Virus record (IMG/VR): IMGVR_UViG_2531839662_000023
Strand: one strand, 5' to 3'
DNA from: a virus
Lineage: Duplodnaviria > Heunggongvirae > Uroviricota > Caudoviricetes
Length of the DNA: 26,750 bases
Made by a program: the position numbers and the translations under genes. Positions 1,981 through 13,326 of the stretch are shown here, piece by piece. The first letter of the stretch is position 1. Each line of letters starts with the position of its first letter. The notes below the pieces were generated by a model. It was given only the letters and a program-made list of their open reading frames with translations, searched no databases and was not told the origin of the DNA.

Positions 1981-2871
1981 TCAGGCTGCCAGATCATTGT
2001 TTCCGATGGAAGCATAATAAGCTTTTTCTGCTTCTGCCGGAGGAGTATGGCCCAGCCTTCCCAGCAATCGTCGATTGTTATACCAGTCCACCCACGTTAG
2101 TGTGGCCAGTTCCACTTCTGCACGGTTTTTCCAGCTCTTACGGTGTATTACCTCCGCTTTGTAAAGACCATTGATGCTCTCAGCCATCGCGTTGTCATAC
2201 GAGTCGCCTGTACTCCCTGTTGATGCCAGTAATCCGGCTTCTTTTAGTCGCTCCGTATAGGCCAGTGACACATACTGAGAGCCTTTATCGCTGTGATGGA
2301 TGGTGCCAGACGGACGACGGGCCCACAACGCCTGCTCCAGCGCATCCAGCACGAATGTCGTTTCCATAGACGATGAGACCCGCCACCCCACGATGTATCC
2401 GGCAAACACATCAATGATGAACGCCACATAGACGAAGCCCCGCCATGTGCTGACGTAAGTAAAATCAGCCACCCACAGCTGGTCAGGTCGTTCTGCCACG
2501 AACTGACGGTTTACGCGGTCGCCTGCGGCAACGGCTTTCCGGCTGATGGTCGTACGGACCTTTTTACCCCGGAGAACACCGGCAAGTCCCATAACCGCCA
2601 TGAGGCGCGCCACTGTACATCTGGCCACCCTGATTCCTTCCCGTAACAACTGACGCCAGACTTTACGCACACCGTACACCTGATGATTTTCATCGTATAC
2701 GCGCTGTATCTCTCTCTTCAGCCAGTCATCGTGCTGCGCACGGGCACTGCGTTTATCCGGATGATGTCGCTGTTGCTGACAATGGTAATACGTTGACGGG
2801 GCAATATGCAGTTCGCTGCATACCGGTCCGACCCCGTACTGCTCACGCAGCTTATCCAGCAGTGGCATCAT
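1981..2871 (-). CDS. IS3-family transposase OrfB (DDE integrase core)
   Basis: 296 aa with an rve-type DDE region (WVADFTYV...HHSDKGSQY...[10 protein letters not shown]). Overlaps orfA by 4 nt, the usual arrangement for programmed frameshifting in this family. Confidence 0.85.
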
Positions 2872-3194
2872 TTTTTCCAGAGGCGGTCGAACTCCGCCTT
2901 CGCAAAATAAGCGGAAGCCTGGCGAAGGATATCGTTACTGCGGCGCAGTTCACGATTTTCACGTTCCAGCTCTTTCAGACGCTGACGTTCAGCGCTGGTG
3001 AGCCCACCATCACCGCCCCCGGTATCCCGCTCATGCTGGCGAACCCAGACACGCAGAGTCTCCGGCGTACAGCCAATCTTTGGGGCAATGGAACAAATTG
3101 CCGCCCACTGTGAGTCATATTCATCCTGACTTTCCAGAACCATACGAATCGCCCGCTGACGGACTTCGGGGGAAAAACGAGTATTTTTAGTCAT
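2868..3194 (-). CDS. IS3-family transposase OrfA (HTH)
   Basis: 108 aa beginning [22 protein letters not shown] with a leucine-zipper-like C-terminus ([27 protein letters not shown]). Recalled as IS629/IS1203-type OrfA. Confidence 0.85.
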
Positions 3195-3268: not shown

Positions 3269-3949
3269 TCATCGCCATTGCTCCCCAAATACAAAACCAA
3301 TTTCAGCCAGTGCCTCGTCCATTTTTTCGATGAACTCCGGCACCATCTCGTCAAAACTCGCCATGTACTTTTCATTCCGCTCAATCACGACATAATGCAG
3401 GCCTTCACGCTTCATGCGCGGGTCATAGTTGGCAAAGTACCAGGCATCTTTTCGCGTCACCCACATGCTGTACTGCACCTGGGCCATGTAAGCCGATTTT
3501 ATTGCCTCGAAACCACCGAGCCGGAATTTCATGAAATCCCGGGAGGTAAACGGGCATTTCAGTTCAAGGCCGTTGCCGTCACTGCATAAACCATCGGGAG
3601 AGCAGGCGGTGCGCATACTTTCGTCGCGATAGATGATCGGGGATTCAGTAATATTCACGCCGGAAGTGAATTCAAACAGGGTTCTGGCGTCGTTCTCGTA
3701 CTGTTTTCCCCAGGCCAGCGCCTTAGCATTAACTTCCGGAGCCACACCGGTGCAAACCTCAGCCAGCAGGGTGTGGAAGTAGGACATTTTCATGTCAGGC
3801 CACTTCTTTCCTGAGCGGGGCTTTGCTATCACGTTGTGAACTTCTGAAGCGGTGATGACGCCGAGCCGTAATTTGTGCCATGCATCATCCCCCTGTTCGA
3901 CAGCTCTCACGTCGATCCCGGTACGCTGCAGGATAATGTCCGGTATCAT
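3269..3949 (-). CDS. exo: Lambda-type 5'-3' exonuclease (Red alpha)
   Basis: 226 aa, near-identical by recall to lambda Exo ([40 protein letters not shown]...GEQWR). Appears intact. Confidence 0.9.
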
Positions 3950-4326
3950 GCTGCCACCTTCTGCTCAGTGGCTTTCTGTTTCAGGAATCCAAGAGCTTTC
4001 ACTGCTTCGGCCTGTGTCAGTTCTGACGATGCGCGAATGTCGCGGCGAAATATCTGGGAACAGAGCGGCAATAAGTCGTCATCCCATGTTTTATCCAGGG
4101 CGATCAGCAGAGTGTTAATCTCCTGCATGGTTTCATCGTTAATGGCTTTTTTGCTGGCCCCGTGGCGTTGCAAATGATCGATGCATAGCGATTCAAACAG
4201 GTGCTGGGGCAGGCCTTTTTCCATGTCGTCTGCCAGTTCTGCCTCTTTCTCTTCACGGGCGATCTGCTGGTAGTAACGCGCCCAGCTCTGAGCCTCAAGA
4301 CGATCCTGAATGTAATAAGCGTTCAT
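3946..4326 (-). pseudogene. In-frame fusion of gam N-terminus to bet C-terminus
   Basis: Residues 1-60 match lambda GamS ([17 protein letters not shown]...[10 protein letters not shown]). Residues 61-126 match the lambda Bet C-terminus ([57 protein letters not shown]). Overlaps the exo start by 4 nt, as bet does in lambda. Confidence 0.7.
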
Positions 4327-4401
4327 GGCTGAACTCCTGAAAATGGCTGTGAAAATATCGCCCGCGAAATGCCAGGCTGATTAGGAAAACAGGAAAGGGG
4401 A

Positions 4402-4692
4402 TTAGCGATTCAGGCCGTTACCGCGTCCGTCGAGAAAAACTTCCACGAGCAAATCACGGGTATAAGTGCGCTCGATGCCGCGATGCAGATAAAGCCGTCC
4501 GCGTAAATTAGCTGATGCAGTCCAGGTACCATCTTTGTGTTTGACCAGCATTCCTGGCATGACCGCACCTCGATTAACGGTCTGCGTTCCGTAATGTTGA
4601 TGAACCATAAAAACTCCTGCCCGTAAGCTGGGCTGCTGAACATATAGAGACTTCTGCGCGTATTCAGGCGGTGGATGGCCGCCGGTTGTCAT
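4402..4692 (-). CDS. Hypothetical protein at the kil/cIII position; start uncertain
   Basis: Open frame ends 76 bp upstream of the gam start. Candidate starts are ATG at 4692 (GAGG about 10 nt upstream) and ATG at 4608 (AGGAG 5 nt upstream). The 136-aa track ORF begins at a TTG. No family recognised. Confidence 0.3.
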
Positions 4693-4885
4693 AACTAAGC
4701 CGCCTCGTTGAAGCGACTGAGGTATAAAGTGTTGTGTTGATTTCAGCTGGTCACACCGACGTTCACGCGTCCGTTTCACCCCTCGCACTCCCCGAAGCCT
4801 GCTGAAATTCAAACTGCGGATCTAAGCGGTCATCGCAACGGTGAAACAGGTGGTTACCGTATCGTTGTGTCGTTGCGATGAATTT

Positions 4886-4940
4886 ATTTAAAACTATAGT
4901 TGTTTTATCGTCAACAACAAAAGTTGTTTTATCGGTTGTT
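4886..4940 (-). promoter_or_regulatory. Candidate early-left promoter/operator (pL/oL-like)
   Basis: Cluster of GTTGTT/AACAAC hexamers (GTTGTT 4899-4904, AACAAC 4913-4918, GTTGTT 4923-4928 and 4935-4940) resembling the half-sites of the OR palindrome at 6430-6454. Minus-strand -35-like TTGTTG and -10-like TATAGT overlap them. Confidence 0.3.
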
Positions 4941-5049
4941 TTAAATATAACTGGTTGTATTTAGGATGGATTTATTTTGTGACTTGCATCGCATAGCGAT
5001 AACTGAAGTGAGGTGTGGTGGTTTTTTGGACGGTATGAGTTATGAGGGG

Positions 5050-5082
5050 GAGGAAAAGAAAACCCGGCGCGGTTGCCGGGTA
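5050..5082 (-). terminator. Rho-independent terminator downstream of the lipoprotein gene
   Basis: GC stem CCCGGC(5063-5068)/GCCGGG(5075-5080), followed on the minus strand by TTTTCTTTTCC, immediately 3' of the stop at 5089. Confidence 0.5.
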
Positions 5083-5088
5083 TGATTA

Positions 5089-5469
5089 TCAGTCAGCCCA
5101 ACCTGATTTCGAGTTTATTTGGGTTTCTGACATTGTGTATTTCTTAATCGTGTCATCGTTAAAAAGAATAGTAAGTTCTTTTTTCGTACCGTTCGTTCCG
5201 TTATGGAATAATCCATAGAATGGAATAAAAGTGGTGCCATTAACTTTTACTTTTGCAAAGGCGTACTTCCAGATCTCCTTTCCACTGTCAGTATATGAAA
5301 CAGCATCAGGAGAACCAAAGTAAGATTTAACCTCATTCTTGGTTGTTTTACCTTCCTGAAGTTTAGACTGGACACTAATTTCAGTTTCATTTTTGAGTTG
5401 CTGGTTGCCTGAAGAAGCACACCCAGCCAATACAGATGCCATCATGGCAGCGATTAGGATTTTTCTCAT
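5089..5469 (-). CDS. Predicted lipoprotein, BamE/SmpA-OmlA-like fold
   Basis: 126 aa with signal peptide and lipobox MRKILIAAMMASVLAG-C. Mature region resembles the BamE fold (KLQEGKTTKNEVKSYFGSPD...WKYAF...LTILFNDD). Sits between cI and the early-left genes, where lambda carries rexAB. Confidence 0.6.
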   Translation of the reverse strand: MRKILIAAMMASVLAGCASSGNQQLKNETEISVQSKLQEGKTTKNEVKSYFGSPDAVSYTDSGKEIWKYAFAKVKVNGTTFIPFYGLFHNGTNGTKKELTILFNDDTIKKYTMSETQINSKSGWAD

Positions 5470-5698
5470 TTTATGTTTCCATTCATTATAATCAGAAACA
5501 TCTTAACATAATGATTCGAAATAAAAACCGCTACGAGATAGGGAGACATTTTGCTGACAGTAGCAACAAATCTCAGCTAACAACGAGAATATTTACTGAA
5601 ATATGCAAACAGATTTGGCGTTCTTATAGAGAATTTAGTGCAATATCTAATCCGAGTGGTATAAACCTTAACCTTCGCTCCCTTAAGTCGTAGATAAA

Positions 5699-6388
5699 TT
5701 AACCATGCTTCCTGTACGTCTGCGGCATGCTTCCAATGACCTTACCGAATATGAACACCCGGTTCATCTCGTCTTTCTCGATCGGGTCCCACGGCGAGTA
5801 GCTCTTGTTATCAGAGATAACCAGCAGCTTATCCTTCATCATTTGAAGACGTTTTACATGGGCAGTGTCGTCGTACAGAAACGCATAGATGCCATCACCG
5901 TCGAAAGATTTAACAGTGATATCAACGAACAGCAGGTCACCTGGTTCGATCGTCCCTGACATGCTGTCACCTCGCACGTTAATGATGCGGATATTTTCCG
6001 CCTTCCTGCCATCGAACATGTGACGAGCATCGTCAAACGAGTACTCAACCGAGCGTAGAACTTCTACAAACTCACGGTTGATTACACCTGGCCCGGCACT
6101 GACTTCTATATCAAGAACGTCAATTTTGAAGTATTTGGAATGGCTGACAGTTGATTGTATTGGTTGCACTGTACTGTCTGACATATTTCCAACGCCAGAA
6201 GATAACCATTCTGCGCGTACACCCAAAGCGTTCGCGATCTCCACGATTTTAGTTGTTTGGTTAGCTTTCCCTGTTTCGATTTTCTGAATAGCAGCCTGGC
6301 TAACCCCGACCAAATCCCCAAGCGCCTTTTGTGTAAGGCCTCGCGCTAATCTGGCTTCTTTAAGTCTTTCTGAGAGTGTTGTTTTCAT
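5699..6388 (-). CDS. cI: CI-type phage repressor (HTH_XRE plus S24 LexA-like peptidase)
   Basis: 229 aa. N-terminal HTH (LTQKALGDLVGVSQAAIQKIETGK) and C-terminal S24 autoproteolysis domain (GDSMSGTIEPGDLLFVD...KRL). Divergent from the cro-like gene. Confidence 0.85.
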   Translation of the reverse strand: MKTTLSERLKEARLARGLTQKALGDLVGVSQAAIQKIETGKANQTTKIVEIANALGVRAEWLSSGVGNMSDSTVQPIQSTVSHSKYFKIDVLDIEVSAGPGVINREFVEVLRSVEYSFDDARHMFDGRKAENIRIINVRGDSMSGTIEPGDLLFVDITVKSFDGDGIYAFLYDDTAHVKRLQMMKDKLLVISDNKSYSPWDPIEKDEMNRVFIFGKVIGSMPQTYRKHG

Positions 6389-6429
6389 AGATCAAATGTA
6401 CAACCAAGGTTTTATTTCATCAAACGAAA

Positions 6430-6454
6430 ATGGTTGTTGACTAAAAACAACCAT
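6430..6454. promoter_or_regulatory. OR operator: 25-bp perfect palindrome overlapping the rightward promoter
   Basis: ATGGTTGTT-gactaaa-AACAACCAT is a perfect inverted repeat. The -35-like TTGACT (6437-6442) lies inside it and a GGAGG RBS precedes cro at 6493. Confidence 0.55.
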
Positions 6455-6492
6455 AGTTTTAATCTTGATTCGGATTAACCACGGAGGTTGTT

Positions 6493-6723
6493 ATGAACCC
6501 AGCAATCAAAACAGCGATCAATATCGTTGGTTCACAAAAGAAACTAGGCGATGCCTGCGAAGTTTCACAGCAGGCCGTCTATAAGTGGCTTCACAACAAA
6601 GCAAAGGTATCCCCTGAACATGTCGGCAGCATTGTTACGGCTACTGGTGGAGTTGTGAAGGCATACCAGATTCGCCCGGATCTTCCGAAGTTGTTTCCAC
6701 ACACCGAAAAGAACGCAGCTTAA
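6493..6723 (+). CDS. Cro-like HTH regulator (YdaS-type)
   Basis: 76-aa ORF transcribed divergently from cI across the operator region, with an HTH-like segment (ACEVSQQAVYKWLHNK). Position and size fit Cro. Confidence 0.7.
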   Translation: MNPAIKTAINIVGSQKKLGDACEVSQQAVYKWLHNKAKVSPEHVGSIVTATGGVVKAYQIRPDLPKLFPHTEKNAA

Positions 6724-6792
6724 ATTTCCATTTCACGCTCTTTAACAATAAGCAATCAACTTAACAGTCAATTCAAACTAAAGGAGTCAATT

Positions 6793-7332
6793 ATGCAACC
6801 ACTTACATACCAACAGACTAGCGGATTTATTCCGACTGCGGTGATAAATCGTTCTCAAACAAAACAAGCTCCAGGCCACGAAAAAATCCGTGATGCCGTC
6901 CGCGCCTGGTCGGCTGTAGATAATCAGGATGTCGTTGCCGCACTCATTGTGAATGAGTATCGGGAGCAGGGCGACGGCACCATCGATTTCCCTGATGATG
7001 TCAGCCGTGCACGCCAGAAGCTGTTCCGCTTCCTCGATAACAAATTCGATTCTGAAAAATACCGAAATAACGTGCGTGAACTGACCCCGGCAATTCTGGC
7101 GGTACTACCGCTGGAATATCGCGGTTACCTGGTTGAGCAGGATAGCTTCATGACTCGGTTGGCTGAAATGGAAAAGGAACTCAGTGAGGCAAAACAGGCT
7201 GTCATTCTCAACGCACCACGCCACCAGAAACTGAAGGAAATGAGTGAAGGTATTGTGTCGATGTTTCGTGTGGACCCGGATCTGGCTGGTCCATTAATGG
7301 CGATGGTGACCACCATGCTGGGGGCAATATGA
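6793..7332 (+). CDS. YdaT-like protein (CII-position regulator)
   Basis: 179 aa immediately downstream of the cro-like gene. The motif LTPAILAVLPLEYR resembles Rac YdaT as recalled. Confidence 0.5.
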   Translation: MQPLTYQQTSGFIPTAVINRSQTKQAPGHEKIRDAVRAWSAVDNQDVVAALIVNEYREQGDGTIDFPDDVSRARQKLFRFLDNKFDSEKYRNNVRELTPAILAVLPLEYRGYLVEQDSFMTRLAEMEKELSEAKQAVILNAPRHQKLKEMSEGIVSMFRVDPDLAGPLMAMVTTMLGAI

Positions 7333-7418
7333 CAGGTTCAGAAATGGCGAAAGTCGGTCTGCGGGAACAGAACCGACTTTCAGGTGCAAATCGTAACACA
7401 CTCATTGCGGGAGGAATT

Positions 7419-8348
7419 ATGGCAAACACTGCTGAGATATTCAATTTTCCAGTGCCGGATGCGGCACAAAAGGAGCCGCGCGTGGCAGATCTCGATGATG
7501 GTTATACGCGCATTGCAAATGAGTTGCTGGAAGCTGTGATGCTGGCCGGATTAACACAGCACCAGCTTCTGGTCTTCCTGGCTGTCATGCGCAAAACATA
7601 TGGCTTTAATAAAAGACTGGATTGGGTGAGCAACGAGCAACTTTCCGAATTGACCGGGATATTGCCGCACAAGTGTTCTGCTGCAAAAAGCGTTCTGGTA
7701 AAGCGTGGGATTCTTATTCAGAGCGGGCGAAATATCGGCATTAATAATGTGGTCAGTGAATGGTCAACATTACCCGAATCAGGTAAGAAAAATAAAGTTT
7801 ACCTGAAAGAGGTAAATTTACCTGAATCAGGTAAGAAAAGTTTACCCAAATCAGGTAAAGGCGTTTACCCGAATCAGGTAAACACAAAAGACAAACTAAC
7901 AAAAGACAATATAAAACCTTTTTCGTCCGAGAATTCTGGCGAATCCTCTGACCAGCCAGAAAACGACCTTCCTGTGGTGAAACCGGATGCTGCAATTCAG
8001 AGTGGCAGCAAGTGGGGGACAGCAGAAGACCTGACCGCCGCAGAGTGGATGTTTGACATGGTGAAGACCATCGCGCCATCAGCCAGAAAACCGAATTTTG
8101 CAGGGTGGGCTAACGATATCCGCCTGATGCGTGAACGTGACGGACGTAACCACCGCGACATGTGCGTGCTGTTCCGCTGGGCATGCCAGGACAACTTCTG
8201 GTCCGGTAACGTGCTGAGTCCGGCCAAACTCCGCGACAAGTGGACCCAGCTCGAAATCAACCGAAACAAGCAACAGGCTGGCGTGACAGCCGGCAAACCA
8301 AAACTCGACCTGACGAACACTGACTGGATTTACGGGGTGGATTTATGA
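7419..8348 (+). CDS. Replication initiator O (lambda O family)
   Basis: N-terminal domain resembles lambda O (RVADLDDGYTRIANELLEA...RKTYGFNK). Strong SD GGGAGG before the ATG at 7419. Stop overlaps the P start (ATGA). The 339-aa track ORF has a non-homologous upstream extension. Confidence 0.85.
   Translation: MANTAEIFNFPVPDAAQKEPRVADLDDGYTRIANELLEAVMLAGLTQHQLLVFLAVMRKTYGFNKRLDWVSNEQLSELTGILPHKCSAAKSVLVKRGILIQSGRNIGINNVVSEWSTLPESGKKNKVYLKEVNLPESGKKSLPKSGKGVYPNQVNTKDKLTKDNIKPFSSENSGESSDQPENDLPVVKPDAAIQSGSKWGTAEDLTAAEWMFDMVKTIAPSARKPNFAGWANDIRLMRERDGRNHRDMCVLFRWACQDNFWSGNVLSPAKLRDKWTQLEINRNKQQAGVTAGKPKLDLTNTDWIYGVDL
7769..7881. repeat. Origin iterons inside O (ori-lambda-like)
   Basis: Five 18-bp repeats of TTTACCYRAATCAGGTAA (one degenerate) starting at 7769, 7798, 7817, 7841 and 7864. 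Each holds an internal TTACC/GGTAA inverted repeat. An A-rich tract follows at 7880-7925. Confidence 0.6.
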
Positions 8349-9046
8349 AAAACATCGCCGCACAGATGGTTAACTTTGACCGTGAGCAGATGCGCCGGAT
8401 CGCCAACAATATGCCGGAACAGTACGACGAAAAGCCGCAGGTACAGCAGGTAGCGCAGATCATCAACGGTGTGTTCAGCCAGTTACTGGCAACTTTCCCG
8501 GCGAGCCTGGCTAACCGTGACCAGAATGAACTGAACGAAATCCGCCGCCAGTGGGTTCTGGCTTTCCGGGAAAACGGGATCACCACAATGGAACAGGTTA
8601 ACGCTGGAATGCGCGTAGCCCGTCGGCAGAATCGACCATTCCTGCCATCACCCGGGCAGTTTGTCGCCTGGTGCCGGGAAGAAGCATCTGTTAACGCCGG
8701 GCTGCCAAACGTCAGCGAGCTGGTTGATATGGTTTACGAGTATTGCCGGAAGCGTGGCCTGTATCCGGATGCAGAGTCTTATCCGTGGAAATCGAACGCG
8801 CATTACTGGTTGGTTACCAACTTGTACCAGAACATGCGGGCCAATGCGCTGGCTGACGCGGAATTACGGCGCAAGGCTGCCGATGAACTGACCTGTATGA
8901 CAGCGCGAATTAACCGTGGTGAGACGATACCTGAACCAGTAAAACAACTTCCTGTTATGGGCGGTAGACCTCTAAATCGTGCACAGGCTCTGGCGAAGAT
9001 CGCAGAAATTAAAGCTAAGTTCGGACTGAAAGGAGCAAGTGTATGA
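8345..9046 (+). CDS. Replication protein P (DnaB helicase loader)
   Basis: 233 aa, near-identical by recall to lambda P (MKNIAAQMVNFDREQMRRIANNMPEQYDEKPQVQQVAQ...AKFGLKGASV). Confidence 0.9.
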   Translation: MKNIAAQMVNFDREQMRRIANNMPEQYDEKPQVQQVAQIINGVFSQLLATFPASLANRDQNELNEIRRQWVLAFRENGITTMEQVNAGMRVARRQNRPFLPSPGQFVAWCREEASVNAGLPNVSELVDMVYEYCRKRGLYPDAESYPWKSNAHYWLVTNLYQNMRANALADAELRRKAADELTCMTARINRGETIPEPVKQLPVMGGRPLNRAQALAKIAEIKAKFGLKGASV

Positions 9047-9345
9047 CGGGCAAAGAGGCAATTATTCATTACCTGGGGACGCATAAGAGCTTCTGTGCAC
9101 AGGACGTTGCCGCGGTAACAGGCGCAACCGTAACCAGCATAAATCAGGCTGCGGCTAAAATGGCGCGGGCAGGAATCCTGGTCGTTGATGGTAAGGTCTG
9201 GCGAACGGTGTATTACCGGTTCGCTACCAGAGAAGAATGGGAAGGAAAGGTGAGCACGAATCTGATTTTTAAGGAGTGTCGCCAGAGTGCCGCGATGAAA
9301 CGGGTATTGAGGGTATATAAAAGAACATCAATGGGAACACAATGA
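9043..9345 (+). CDS. ren: Ren protein (Rex exclusion resistance)
   Basis: 100 aa beginning MTGKEAIIHYLGTH...VTSINQAAAKMARAGILVVDGKVWRTVYYRFATREE, matching lambda Ren by recall. Overlaps the P stop. Intact here. Confidence 0.85.
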   Translation: MTGKEAIIHYLGTHKSFCAQDVAAVTGATVTSINQAAAKMARAGILVVDGKVWRTVYYRFATREEWEGKVSTNLIFKECRQSAAMKRVLRVYKRTSMGTQ

Positions 9346-9412
9346 TGAAACAGGTGAGTTGAGTTCAAACTGTAGTACAATTCTCTCCAGTTTGAACAGG
9401 AAAGAATATGCT

Positions 9413-9745
9413 ATGAACCCTTATATTTATCTTGGTGGTGCAATACTTGCAGAGGTCATTGGTACAACCTTAATGAAGTTTTCAGAAGGTTTTACACGGT
9501 TATGGCCATCTGTTGGTACAATTATTTGTTATTGTGCATCATTCTGGTTATTAGCTCAGACGCTGGCTTATATTCCTACAGGGATTGCTTATGCTATCTG
9601 GTCAGGAGTCGGTATTGTCCTGATTAGCTTACTGTCATGGGGATTTTTCGGCCAACGGCTGGACCTGCCAGCCATTATAGGCATGATGTTGATTTGTGCC
9701 GGTGTGTTGATTATTAATTTATTGTCACGAAGCACACCACATTAA
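9413..9745 (+). CDS. emrE: Small multidrug resistance efflux transporter EmrE
   Basis: 110 aa from the internal ATG at 9413 (MNPYIYLGGAILAEVIGTTLMKFSEGF...), with four TM segments and the conserved Glu in TM1. The track ORF carries an 18-aa upstream extension. Confidence 0.9.
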   Translation: MNPYIYLGGAILAEVIGTTLMKFSEGFTRLWPSVGTIICYCASFWLLAQTLAYIPTGIAYAIWSGVGIVLISLLSWGFFGQRLDLPAIIGMMLICAGVLIINLLSRSTPH

Positions 9746-9775
9746 AATAATTTGTTTCTAAACGACTAAAATATG

Positions 9776-9818
9776 GAGGCTCTTATATTTATATGAGCCT
9801 CGTTTTATGCTTTTTGTT
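9776..9818 (+). terminator. Rho-independent terminator after emrE
   Basis: Stem GAGGCTC(9776-9782)/GAGCCTC(9795-9801) followed by GTTTTATGCTTTTTGTT. Confidence 0.55.
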
Positions 9819-9999
9819 AATGTCTTTATTTTTTATGTATTCTTTTGTGCTTTCAAGATTATGGCGTAAGAAAATTGCAATACGATTATTGTTGTATATT
9901 CAAGATAATGTGACCTTAATTGTCTTTTTAAATAAAAAATAAACAAAAATTATATCCCACCACTAAGGTTTATAAAAGCATACGTTAGCAGGTGTCACC

Positions 10000-10569
10000 A
10001 TGAAAAAAGCCATAGCATATATGCGATTTTCATCACCAGGTCAGATGTCTGGCGACTCATTAAACCGACAGAGAAGACTTATTGCTGAATGGTTAAAGGT
10101 AAATAGTGATTATTATCTTGATACCATAACATATGAAGATTTAGGATTAAGTGCATTCAAAGGAAAGCATGCACAATCAGGAGCTTTTTCGGAATTTTTA
10201 GATGCTATAGAGCATGGTTATATATTGCCAGGAACTACATTGTTAGTTGAAAGTCTGGACAGACTTTCAAGAGAAAAAGTCGGTGAAGCGATTGAACGTC
10301 TGAAATTGATTTTGAATCACGGTATTGATGTTATAACTCTTTGCGACAATACAGTCTATAATATTGGCTCTTTGAATGAGCCATATTCATTAATAAAAGC
10401 CATACTTATAGCACAAAGGGCAAATGAAGAAAGCGAGATAAAGTCAAGTCGGGTTAAATTATCATGGAAGAAAAAACGGCAGGATGCACTGGAATCAGGT
10501 ACGATTATGACGGCGTCTTGTCCGAGATGGCTCTCCTTAGATGACAAAAGAACGGCTTTTGTTCCAGAC
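10000..10569 (+). pseudogene. ybcK: Large serine recombinase, N-terminal part, interrupted by IS2
   Basis: Resolvase-type catalytic domain (IAYMRFSSPGQ...LLVESLDRLSRE). Homology stops at the IS2 end (10570). Reading continues in frame after the IS at 11901. Confidence 0.7.
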
Positions 10570-10580
10570 TGGATTTGCCC

Positions 10581-11486
10581 CTATATTTCCAGACATCTGT
10601 TATCACTTAACCCATTACAGGCCCGCTGCCGCAGATATTCCCGTGGCGAGCGATAACCCAGCGCACTATGCGGATGCCATTCGTTATAATGCTCGAACGC
10701 CTCTGCAAGGTTCTTTGCTGCCGTTAACCCGTCTGGTTTGGGCATGATACTGATGTAGTCACGCTTTATCGTTTTCACGAAGCTCTCTGCTATTCCGTTA
10801 CTCTCCGGACTCCGCACCGCCGTGTTCTTCGGTTCAAGTCCCAACATCCGGGCGAACTGGCGTGTTTCATTAGCCCGGTAGCATGAACCATTATCCGTCA
10901 GCCACTCCACTGGAGACGACGGAAGATCGTTGCCGAAGCGGCGTTCCACCGCTCCCAGCATGACGTCCTGTACTGTTTCACTGTTGAAGCCGCCGGTAGT
11001 CACCGCCCAGTGCAGTGCCTCACGATCACAGCAGTCCAGCGCGAACGTGACACGCAGTCTCTCTCCGTTATCACAGCAGAACTCGAACCCGTCAGAGCAC
11101 CATCGCTGATTGCTTTCTTTCACGGCCACTCTGCCTGTATGTGCCCGTTTCGATGGCGGTACAGCAGGTTTTCGCTCAAGCAACAGCGCATTCTGGCGCA
11201 TGATCCGGTAAACACGTTTGGCATTGATCGCAGGCATACCATCAAGTTCTGCCTGTCTGCGAAGCAGCGCCCATACCCGACGATAACCATACGTGGGCAG
11301 CTCTCCGATAACATGGTGTATACGGAGAAGCACATCCGTATCATCAGTGTGACGACTGCGGCGGCCATCCATCCAGTCATCGGTTCGTCTGAGAATGACG
11401 TGCAACTGCGCACGCGACACCCGGAGACAACGGCTGACTAAGCTTACTCCCCATCCCCGGGCAATAAGGGCGCGTGCGCTATCCAC
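10581..11486 (-). CDS. insD: IS2 transposase InsD (OrfB)
   Basis: 301 aa ([30 protein letters not shown]...), recalled as IS2 InsD. Confidence 0.9.
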
Positions 11487-11809
11487 TTTTTTGCCCGTCC
11501 ATATTCAACGGCTTCTTTGAGGAGTTCATTTTCCATCGTTTTCTTGCCGAGCAGGCGCTGGAGTTCTTTAATCTGCTTCATGGCGGCAGCAAGTTCAGAG
11601 GCAGGAACAACCTGTTCTCCGGCGGCGACAGCAGTAAGACTTCCTTCCTGGTATTGCTTACGCCAGAGAAATAACTGGCTGGCTGCTACACCATGTTGCC
11701 GGGCAACGAGGGAGACCGTCATCCCCGGTTCAAAGCTCTGCTGAACAATTGCGATCTTTTCCTGTGTGGTACGCCGTCTGCGTTTCTCCGGCCCTAAGAC
11801 ATCAATCAT
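11444..11809 (-). CDS. insC: IS2 transposase InsC (OrfA)
   Basis: 121 aa from the internal ATG ([40 protein letters not shown]...), recalled as IS2 InsC. The track ORF has a 15-aa extension. Confidence 0.9.
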
Positions 11810-11900
11810 CTGTTCTCCAATGACTAGTCTAAAAACTAGTATTAAGACTATCACTTATTTAAGTGATACTGGTTGTCTGGAGATTCAGGGGGCCAGTCTA

Positions 11901-12862
11901 CAGACCCCGACAGGGTGAAAACTATTGAGCTAATTTTTAAACTCAGGATGGAAAGGCGCTCATTGAATGCAATAGCCAAGTATTTAAATGATCATGCTGT
12001 AAAGAATTTCTCAGGAAAAGAAAGTGCATGGGGACCTTCTGTAATTGAAAAATTATTAGCGAATAAAGCTCTGATAGGTATTTGCGTACCTTCATATCGT
12101 GCAAGAGGGAAAGGGATAAGTGAAATCGCTGGCTATTATCCCAGAGTCATATCAGATGATTTGTTTTACGCTGTACAGGAAATTCGGTTGGCACCTTTTG
12201 GTATTAGCAATAGTAGCAAGAATCCTATGCTAATAAATCTACTTCGAACAGTTATGAAGTGTGAGGCTTGTGGTAATACCATGATTGTTCATGCGGTATC
12301 TGGAAGTTTGCATGGCTATTATGTTTGTCCGATGAGAAGATTACATCGATGTGACAGGCCATCAATAAAAAGAGATTTGGTTGATTATAATATCATTAAT
12401 GAATTGCTTTTTAATTGTAGCAAAATTCAACCAGTTGAAAACAAGAAAGATGCTAATGAAACTTTAGAGTTAAAAATTATTGAGCTTCAGATGAAAATTA
12501 ATAATTTAATCGTTGCATTGTCTGTCGCGCCTGAAGTTACCGCTATAGCAGAGAAAATAAGACTATTAGATAAGGAATTACGAAGGGCTTCGGTATCATT
12601 GAAAACTTTGAAGAGTAAAGGTGTAAATTCATTCAGTGATTTTTATGCTATTGACTTAACCAGTAAAAATGGACGAGAGTTATGCCGTACACTTGCCTAT
12701 AAAACATTCGAAAAAATCATAATTAATACGGATAATAAAACCTGTGATATCTATTTTATGAATGGCATTGTTTTTAAACACTATCCTTTAATGAAAGTAA
12801 TATCCGCCCAGCAGGCGATAAGTGCTCTCAAATATATGGTTGATGGTGAGATTTATTTCTAA
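11901..12862 (+). pseudogene. ybcK: Large serine recombinase, C-terminal part
   Basis: Recombinase and zinc-ribbon region (CEACGNTMIVHAVSG...YYVCPMRR) plus coiled coil. Removing the IS and one CAGAC copy restores ...[17 protein letters not shown]... in frame. Confidence 0.7.
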
Positions 12863-13326
12863 ATAATGATCTCGGATTTTAAGTTATGCTATGGTGATAA
12901 AGTGCAAGACAGAATTAATTATCTTTGACGAAACTTAATGGGTAATTACTTTGTTTGCTCCCACAAGCGAGTTTTGTACGGCTGTATTGGGGTAGTAAAT
13001 GAGCTATACAATCTTAATCATTTGTTAGGTGAGAACTCTTGGTCGCAGATTCAAATACTGAAAATACGTGACAAATTATTATGAGCAAAATGGTGTATGT
13101 CACGTATTTTGAATGGTAGGTTAAAAAATAACACCGACTTTCGTAGGTGTTACTAATAATAAAGCAGAGTTTTTAGATAGTATCAATGTGCTTTGTGTAT
13201 ATTGTGGCAAATAATTGGGTTGGGGGTACAATTGTGATTGCTTTTGCATGAACATTGCGCCTTTATGCATAATGAGATAAAGGAATATCAAATAAAATAA
13301 CGATAGGTCATAACAAAGAGGTTTTT

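Follow-up and report, generated by a model that had tools for sequence, protein, structure and literature searches.

The replication gene O of the window (the whole stretch of 26,750 nucleotides analysed here) very probably carries a lambdoid origin of the ori-lambda type, within a defective prophage of the DLP12 type that is integrated beside a tRNA-Arg gene (the argU of K-12). The sequence features that mark this type of origin are found here. The element lies between the domains of O and consists of at least four dyad-symmetric repeats of about 18 bp, roughly two helical turns apart, with an adjoining A/T-rich tract. The initiator belongs to the Phage_rep_O family and has iterons that co-vary with it, and a helicase-loading partner matching the C-domain of O is encoded downstream. 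The first-pass annotation had proposed a "probable intact ori" at this place, and the homologies described below support that wording as being of the right strength. The origin is of an already known kind, with identical copies in published phage genomes, and opens no new question on replication origins. The coordinates of the features are collected in Table 1.

Table 1. Features of the immunity and replication region, in window coordinates.
Feature	Position	Strand	Sequence	Remarks
CI-type repressor	5699..6388	-		HTH and S24 peptidase domains
Putative pR with operator	6430..6465	+		Promoter assigned tentatively, by eye from the sequence
cro-like gene, YdaS/P22_Cro family	6493..6723	+		Upstream of O, same operon
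cII-position gene, YdaT family	6793..7332	+		Upstream of O, same operon; PHROG "CII-like activator"
Gene O, replication initiator, 309 aa	7419..8348	+		Pfam Phage_rep_O; PHROG 277
Iteron 1	7770..7786		TTACCCGAATCAGGTAA	Extra, ori-distal, without lambda counterpart; frame 0, LPESGK
Iteron 2	7799..7815		TTACCTGAAAGAGGTAA	Aligns with lambda iteron 1 (39034-39051); frame +2, YLKEV
Iteron 3	7818..7834		TTACCTGAATCAGGTAA	16/17 self-complementary; aligns with lambda iteron 2; frame 0, LPESGK
Iteron 4	7842..7858		TTACCCAAATCAGGTAA	Aligns with lambda iteron 3; frame 0, LPKSGK
Iteron 5	7865..7881		TTACCCGAATCAGGTAA	Aligns with lambda iteron 4; abuts A-rich tract; frame +2, YPNQV
A-rich tract	7882..7919	+		38 nt, directly after iteron 5; presumed DNA-unwinding element
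Imperfect palindrome	7922..7943		TTCGTCCGAGAATTCTGGCGAA	Counterpart of the ori-lambda right-hand palindrome, from alignment
Gene P, lambda-type DnaB helicase loader, 233 aa	8345..9046	+		Pfam Phage_lambda_P

Five iterons in the linker of gene O

Performing a repeat search, we obtained a single family of five direct copies starting at 7770, 7799, 7818, 7842 and 7865, with start-to-start spacings of 29, 19, 24 and 23 nt. Each copy is an inverted repeat with respect to itself and to the other copies, and the iteron type is a dyad-symmetric TTACC-N7-GGTAA. The core pattern TTACCYRAAWSAGGTAA matches five times in the 26.75-kb window, always in the array and nowhere else. Chance alone predicts 0.05 matches, and in 100 shuffles the observed number was never reached. 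The five repeats are therefore confirmed as real and far beyond chance. Between 12 and 16 of the 17 positions of the cores are self-complementary; iteron 2 (12/17) has a deviant centre, AAAGA in place of AATCA. The first-pass annotation had described five 18-bp direct repeats with an internal palindrome. Their number and dyad symmetry hold, but the common core measures 17 nt and becomes 18 nt only with a flanking T or A.

An A-rich tract had been noted after the repeats, and it lies directly 3′ of iteron 5, where 24 of its 38 nucleotides are A (with 8 C, 2 G and 4 T). It holds a tandem ACAAAAGACAA motif, which the repeat search returned as its family D2. The 40-mer at 7880-7919 has a GC content of 0.25 and an AT skew of +0.73; it is the most single-base-biased 40-mer of the O-P region, and 0.09% of the 40-mers in the window are equally biased. 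The extent given earlier for the element, 7769-7925, needs a small correction. The array and the tract together span 7770-7919, while the imperfect palindrome homologous to lambda reaches 7943, past the former right end.

Residues 21-115 of O match Pfam Phage_rep_O (PF04492, E 3.6e-34), and PHROG 277 ("replication initiation O-like") is matched over the full length of the protein. The protein is laid out as an N-terminal DNA-binding domain (aa 1-115), an ori-encoded linker rich in Lys, Ser and Gly (aa 116-167) and a lambda-like C-terminal domain (aa 168-309). The array and the tract encode aa 118-167, and thus fall between the end of the Pfam N-domain at aa 115 and the C-domain that begins at about aa 168. 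The stop codon of O overlaps the start codon of P at 8345; P matches Pfam Phage_lambda_P (PF06992, E 1.9e-61) and is followed by a Ren-like gene. A search of the PDB with the O sequence gave no relative with a solved structure. The family to which each of the two proteins belongs is unambiguous.

In public records the O protein has 339 aa, with its start placed further upstream, at the in-frame ATG of 7329. The stretch homologous to 7329-7419 contains in-frame stops in lambda, Klebsiella phage GZ7 and mEp213. The ATG at 7419 is preceded by GGAGG, and the motif GGAGxAATTATG is kept at this place in lambda and GZ7. Because of these upstream stops in relatives and the conserved motif, we took 7419 as the start of O, and the 30 extra codons at 7329-7419 are probably not part of the gene.

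Two other readings of the array were dropped. Rfam searches with gathering thresholds (4000-10000) and in E-value mode (7200-8000) returned only matches far below the gathering scores, and an RNA reading of the repeats was abandoned after this lack of a meaningful match. A minus-strand ORF over the array (7753-8079, 108 aa) is antisense to the conserved O, has no support, and was set aside as spurious.

Comparison with ori-lambda and other lambdoid origins

The lambda origin consists of four 18-bp iterons and a 38-bp AT-rich tract inside O, at 39034-39160 (PMC3349717). The RefSeq record of lambda annotates the four O-binding iterons inside O at 39034, 39054, 39078 and 39101. In a MAFFT alignment, as the first-pass annotation had suggested making, repeats 2-5 of the window fall on these annotated iterons 1-4 column for column, and repeat 1 lies in an insertion relative to lambda. 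The window thus has five iterons against four, the extra one on the left, and the spacing of repeats 2-5 is 19/24/23 nt compared with 20/24/23 nt in lambda. In both, the last iteron abuts ACACAAAAGACA. The 38-bp AT-rich part of ori-lambda has its homologue in the A-rich tract of the window, and 7882-7960 is 86% identical to lambda 39119-39197. This stretch includes the right-hand palindrome, which reads TTCGTCCGAGAATTCTGGCGAA in the window and TTCGTCAGAGAATTCTGGCGAA in lambda; the TCCGAG variant found in the window is also present in a primer used for ori-lambda and ori-Stx templates (PMC7466680). With iterons in the O linker, matching spacing, the A-rich tract and the right-hand palindrome, the ori-lambda architecture inside O that had been noted earlier is borne out.

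The likeness to lambda is not uniform along the module. The iterons read TTACC-N7-GGTAA in the window and TCCCTC-N6-GAGGGA in lambda. The N-domain of O (aa 1-115) is 49% identical to that of lambda O and the ori-encoded linker 25%, whereas the C-domain (aa 168-309) reaches 98% and P reaches 97%. With an N-domain just 49% identical, the specificity between initiator and origin is presumably unlike that of lambda. The cII-position gene also differs, being of the YdaT family and not of the lambda CII type.

Other lambdoid phages show further combinations. The O protein of Klebsiella phage GZ7 is 84% identical to that of the window in its N-domain and 18% in its C-domain; GZ7 has five TTACC..GGTAA repeats in the same register and a DnaC-type loader as the partner of O. 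The HK97-like phage mEp213 has a third type of N-domain, TTAGC..GCTAA repeats and a DnaB-type helicase. The origins of HK97/mEp213 and GZ7 follow the layout of the window: an O-like gene contains both the iterons and an ACACAAAAGACA..ACAAAAGACAAT tract. In contrast, the C-domains of the mEp213 and GZ7 O proteins are unrelated to that of the window (13-18% identity) and their partners are not lambda P. Aligning lambda, the window, GZ7 and mEp213, we find the tract core ACACAAAAGACA...ACAAAAGA in all four phages. From these four combinations, the iteron type tracks the N-domain of O and the loader type tracks its C-domain, although the co-variation of iterons and N-domain covers three specificity classes only and is illustrative rather than statistical. 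The replication module of the window is, on these alignments, a mosaic, with a specificity unit unlike lambda's, made up of the iterons and the N-domain of O, and with an A-rich tract, O C-domain and P of the lambda type. That iterons go with the N-domain, and the C-domain with the helicase-loading partner, is an established and already known lambdoid design; the window provides a clean example of this modularity, in which the iterons pair with the O N-domain, and the helicase loader with the A-rich tract and the C-domain of O.

Phage D2 (OM475427.1) looked at first sight like a natural hybrid of a window-type N-domain and lambda iterons. Its O gene (1501-2522 of locus L010), annotated as two CDS, is of the window type over 336 nt; beyond a junction that shifts the reading frame, 687 nt match reference lambda at 100.000% identity. 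The D2 O region is more likely an assembly chimera with lambda, and we rejected it as evidence. Papers from about 1980 on lambdoid origins reportedly describe phage 82 with five repeats. The DLP12 genes rusA and Q are relatives of phage 82 genes. The ori of the window may be of the phage 82 type; literature searches yielded neither a usable ori sequence of phage 82 nor usable studies of how DLP12 replicates.

Stx phages offer a parallel for the extra repeat. The iteron number varies among lambdoid phages, and Stx phages have six (PMC7466680). Their origins (933W, P27) resemble that of the window: they are lambda-type, have the same A-rich tract and palindrome, and exceed the basic four iterons by additional ones on the ori-distal side. 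They differ in keeping lambda-type iterons and a near-lambda O N-domain, while the window has one extra iteron and another iteron sequence. The extra distal iterons of Stx phages are weakly bound yet required for plasmid replication (PMC7466680), and by analogy the distal repeat 1 of the window may have a similar role.

A replication module intact in sequence within a defective prophage

Both O and P had been called apparently intact, and we agree. They are full length with their Pfam domains, O has no private residue when compared with five phages, and P has a single private change, T170A, when compared with six. Searching the phage collection, we found 16 records that cover at least 80% of the O-P query; the best 15 cover 100% of it at 96.6-98.8% identity. 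Several of the matching records name E. coli C or K-12 MG1655 as the host, and some are classed as Bievrevirus. We took these relatives as viable from their records (complete genomes, E. coli hosts named).

Phages Turner and PhiR30_1 share the ori stretch 7740-7960 (221 nt) of the window without a single base change, and in PhiR70_1, Lambda_4C10 and Perceval 1-2 nt of it are different. Across the Bievrevirus-like phages (Turner, PhiR30_1, PhiR70_1, PhiR26_1, Lambda_4C10, 4A7 and Perceval), the ori is identical or 1-2 nt off, and the O and P proteins are 98-99% and 96-99% identical to those of the window, respectively. These phages are complete genomes, whereas the copy in the window lies in a prophage without virion genes. 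In the phage records O and P are annotated, whereas the iterons are left unmarked.

The same origin is widespread. Of 80 IMG/VR loci that encode this N-domain, 78 match the window in iteron number (five) and spacing, 39 share the identical 150-nt ori, and 73 encode the full 309-aa O; the polymorphism of the ori falls mostly in the spacers. In L042 and L048, two of the IMG/VR loci, a 23-bp deletion between iterons 4 and 5 (around position 1924) leaves four iterons and frameshifts O to 169 aa, which suggests decay of the origin by recombination between iterons. The O gene and ori of the window have no damage of this kind. A 261-nt ori fragment is found at a coverage of at least 80% in 2,368 of 5,426 complete E. 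coli genomes (44%), mostly with 95-100% identity, and the ori of the window is thus among the commonest lambdoid origin types in E. coli.

The prophage around the module is damaged. The first 25 kb of the window are 99.9% identical to the chromosome of the porcine ETEC strain UMNF18, which has one extra IS. The match adjoins the tRNA-Arg gene, between fimZ and appY, which is the DLP12 prophage site. From intD, the UMNF18 locus runs through an IS3-family element, exo, a fused bet/gam remnant and kil to the immunity and replication block. It continues with emrE, ybcK split by IS2, ybcL to quuD, a porin gene, lysis genes and bor, and ends in a truncated nohD and a J fragment, with no head or tail genes. 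The earlier statement that the prophage cannot make virions is well founded in this near-identical locus, with its truncated nohD, J fragment, missing head and tail genes, truncated bet/gam and IS insertions. Isolates from pig, cattle, chicken, dog and human contain this defective prophage as well, at 97.4-100% identity and with a replication protein annotated. In the window itself, IS2 lies in the serine recombinase gene ybcK (10570-11900) and the IS3-family element between the early-left genes and exo (1981-3194). The genes bet and gam are reduced to a fused remnant (3946-4326); this decay lies outside the replication block.

In K-12 MG1655 (566098-566687), exoD abuts peaD, a P fragment, which is followed by renD. 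Because exoD runs straight into peaD, the DLP12 of K-12 has lost the kil-cI-cro-cII-O block including the origin. The DLP12 version in the window retains the repressor-to-P block that is deleted from the K-12 copy.

The control region upstream of O is also well preserved, and the cI-pR-cro-cII block (5600-7420) is 99.9% identical to that of phage PhiR26_1. Between cI and cro lies a putative pR with TTGACT (6437-6442) and TAATCT (6460-6465) separated by 17 nt, overlapped by a palindrome with 9-bp arms, ATGGTTGTT-N7-AACAACCAT, at 6430-6454. A consensus promoter scan listed the palindrome and did not list the pR candidate. Judged by eye, 6430-6465 is a plausible pR with its operator. Transcription from this putative promoter would express cro, cII, O and P and would cross the ori, and the CI-type repressor would hold O and P silent until its SOS-triggered self-cleavage.

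Two side observations concern this region. Pfam assigns the genes at the cro and cII positions to YdaS_toxin and YdaT_toxin. Despite these "toxin" names, a regulatory role is the better fit, as the genes sit exactly where cro and cII are expected in an immunity region of phage grade. On the minus strand, the position of lambda pO is taken by a CATAAT -10 element (7421-7416) preceded by TG, and a hairpin with a 15-bp stem follows at 7348-7382 (RNA fold z = -3.5). The minus-strand stretch 7348-7421 could encode an oop-like RNA antisense to the 3′ end of the cII-position gene; its U-tail is weak and a search of Rfam gave no match for it.

Proposed function and rival explanations

By analogy with lambda, dimers of O would bind the five TTACC-N7-GGTAA iterons through the N-terminal winged-helix Phage_rep_O domain and assemble an O-some. 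Strain from the O-some would open the 38-nt A-rich tract next to it, and the P-DnaB complex would be recruited by the C-terminal, lambda-like domain of O. Host chaperones would then free DnaB, and bidirectional replication would start, aided by rightward transcription from pR. The CI-type repressor presumably keeps the module silent in the prophage. Because the sequences of the ori, O and P cannot be told apart from those of complete phages with E. coli hosts named in their records, the origin should fire upon inactivation of this repressor, despite the loss of the virion genes. Derepression would be expected to cause "onion-skin" replication in situ or, given the intact intD, replication of a circle after excision. 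When ori-lambda fires from a non-excisable prophage, the cell dies, an outcome called "replicative killing" (PMC3349717).

The repeats could in principle be nothing other than a peptide linker of O, made of LPESGKK units that arose by slippage and without function at the DNA level. The first-pass annotation had stated that the repeats encode LPESGKK, and this is right for repeats 1 and 3 and nearly so for repeat 4 (LPKSGKG); the LPESGK or LPKSGK peptides of these three do lie in the Lys/Ser/Gly-rich interdomain linker. Repeats 2 and 5, however, are read in frame +2 and give the unrelated peptides VYLKEVN and VYPNQVN, though their DNA is conserved. The four lambda iterons likewise lie in three different reading frames. 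Since two of the five repeats are in another frame and the lambda iterons also span three frames, the conserved object is the DNA and not the peptide. Every repeat is, moreover, dyad-symmetric, the repeats align with the annotated O-binding iterons of lambda, and their sequence changes along with the O N-domain across phages. We consider the peptide explanation barely credible, and an ori-lambda-type origin remains our preferred reading of the element. What this origin does for its present host is a separate matter. It may be a recent relic, intact in sequence but without a role, either permanently repressed or lethal if fired, and awaiting decay. This view agrees with ours on the identity of the element and differs solely on its present use, and we lean somewhat towards it. 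The loss of virion genes, the IS insertions and the truncated bet/gam favor it, as do the DLP12 of K-12, already without its cI-O region, the decayed copies in L042 and L048 with their 23-bp deletion, and the reported lethality of ori-lambda firing from a non-excisable prophage (PMC3349717). Against it, no decay is detectable yet, with O free of private substitutions and P having one, and the same defective prophage persists at 97.4-100% identity in isolates from five hosts.

Alternatively, the ori and O-P could be kept for a benefit to the host, either as a decoy that titrates the O protein of superinfecting phages of the same specificity or through SOS-triggered amplification of emrE, the porin gene and ompT. 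Ectopic copies of ori-lambda block the growth of lambda (PMC4488673), and iterons together with oop inhibit specifically those phages that have lambda-type replication genes (PMC3349717). Target phages would be abundant, given that the ori occurs in 44% of complete E. coli genomes. The published decoy effects, however, come from multicopy plasmids and not from a single chromosomal copy, escape replication is generally lethal, and nothing in the data points to selection on the prophage copy itself. A benefit of either kind seems unlikely to us. The least ordinary version, in which a fully competent repressor-pR-O-ori-P module has been retained in this virion-less prophage for its use to the host, against superinfection or for transient amplification of cargo, we regard as very unlikely.

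As an annotation, the ori-lambda-type origin marks where replication would start if a DLP12-type prophage were derepressed. SOS induction of carrier strains could give local over-replication or killing, as for non-excisable lambda fragments.

A last observation concerns the genes to the right of the replication block. The genes emrE, ylcJ and ybcK (window 9359-13000) occur in the same order in the complete phages PhiR70_1, Lambda_4C10 and Perceval, and PhiR70_1 also has ybcL to ylcG. From this shared order in complete phage genomes, these genes, known as K-12 chromosomal ones, are therefore cargo of a living phage lineage. By their gene content, the phages bearing emrE and ybcK look like intact relatives of DLP12.
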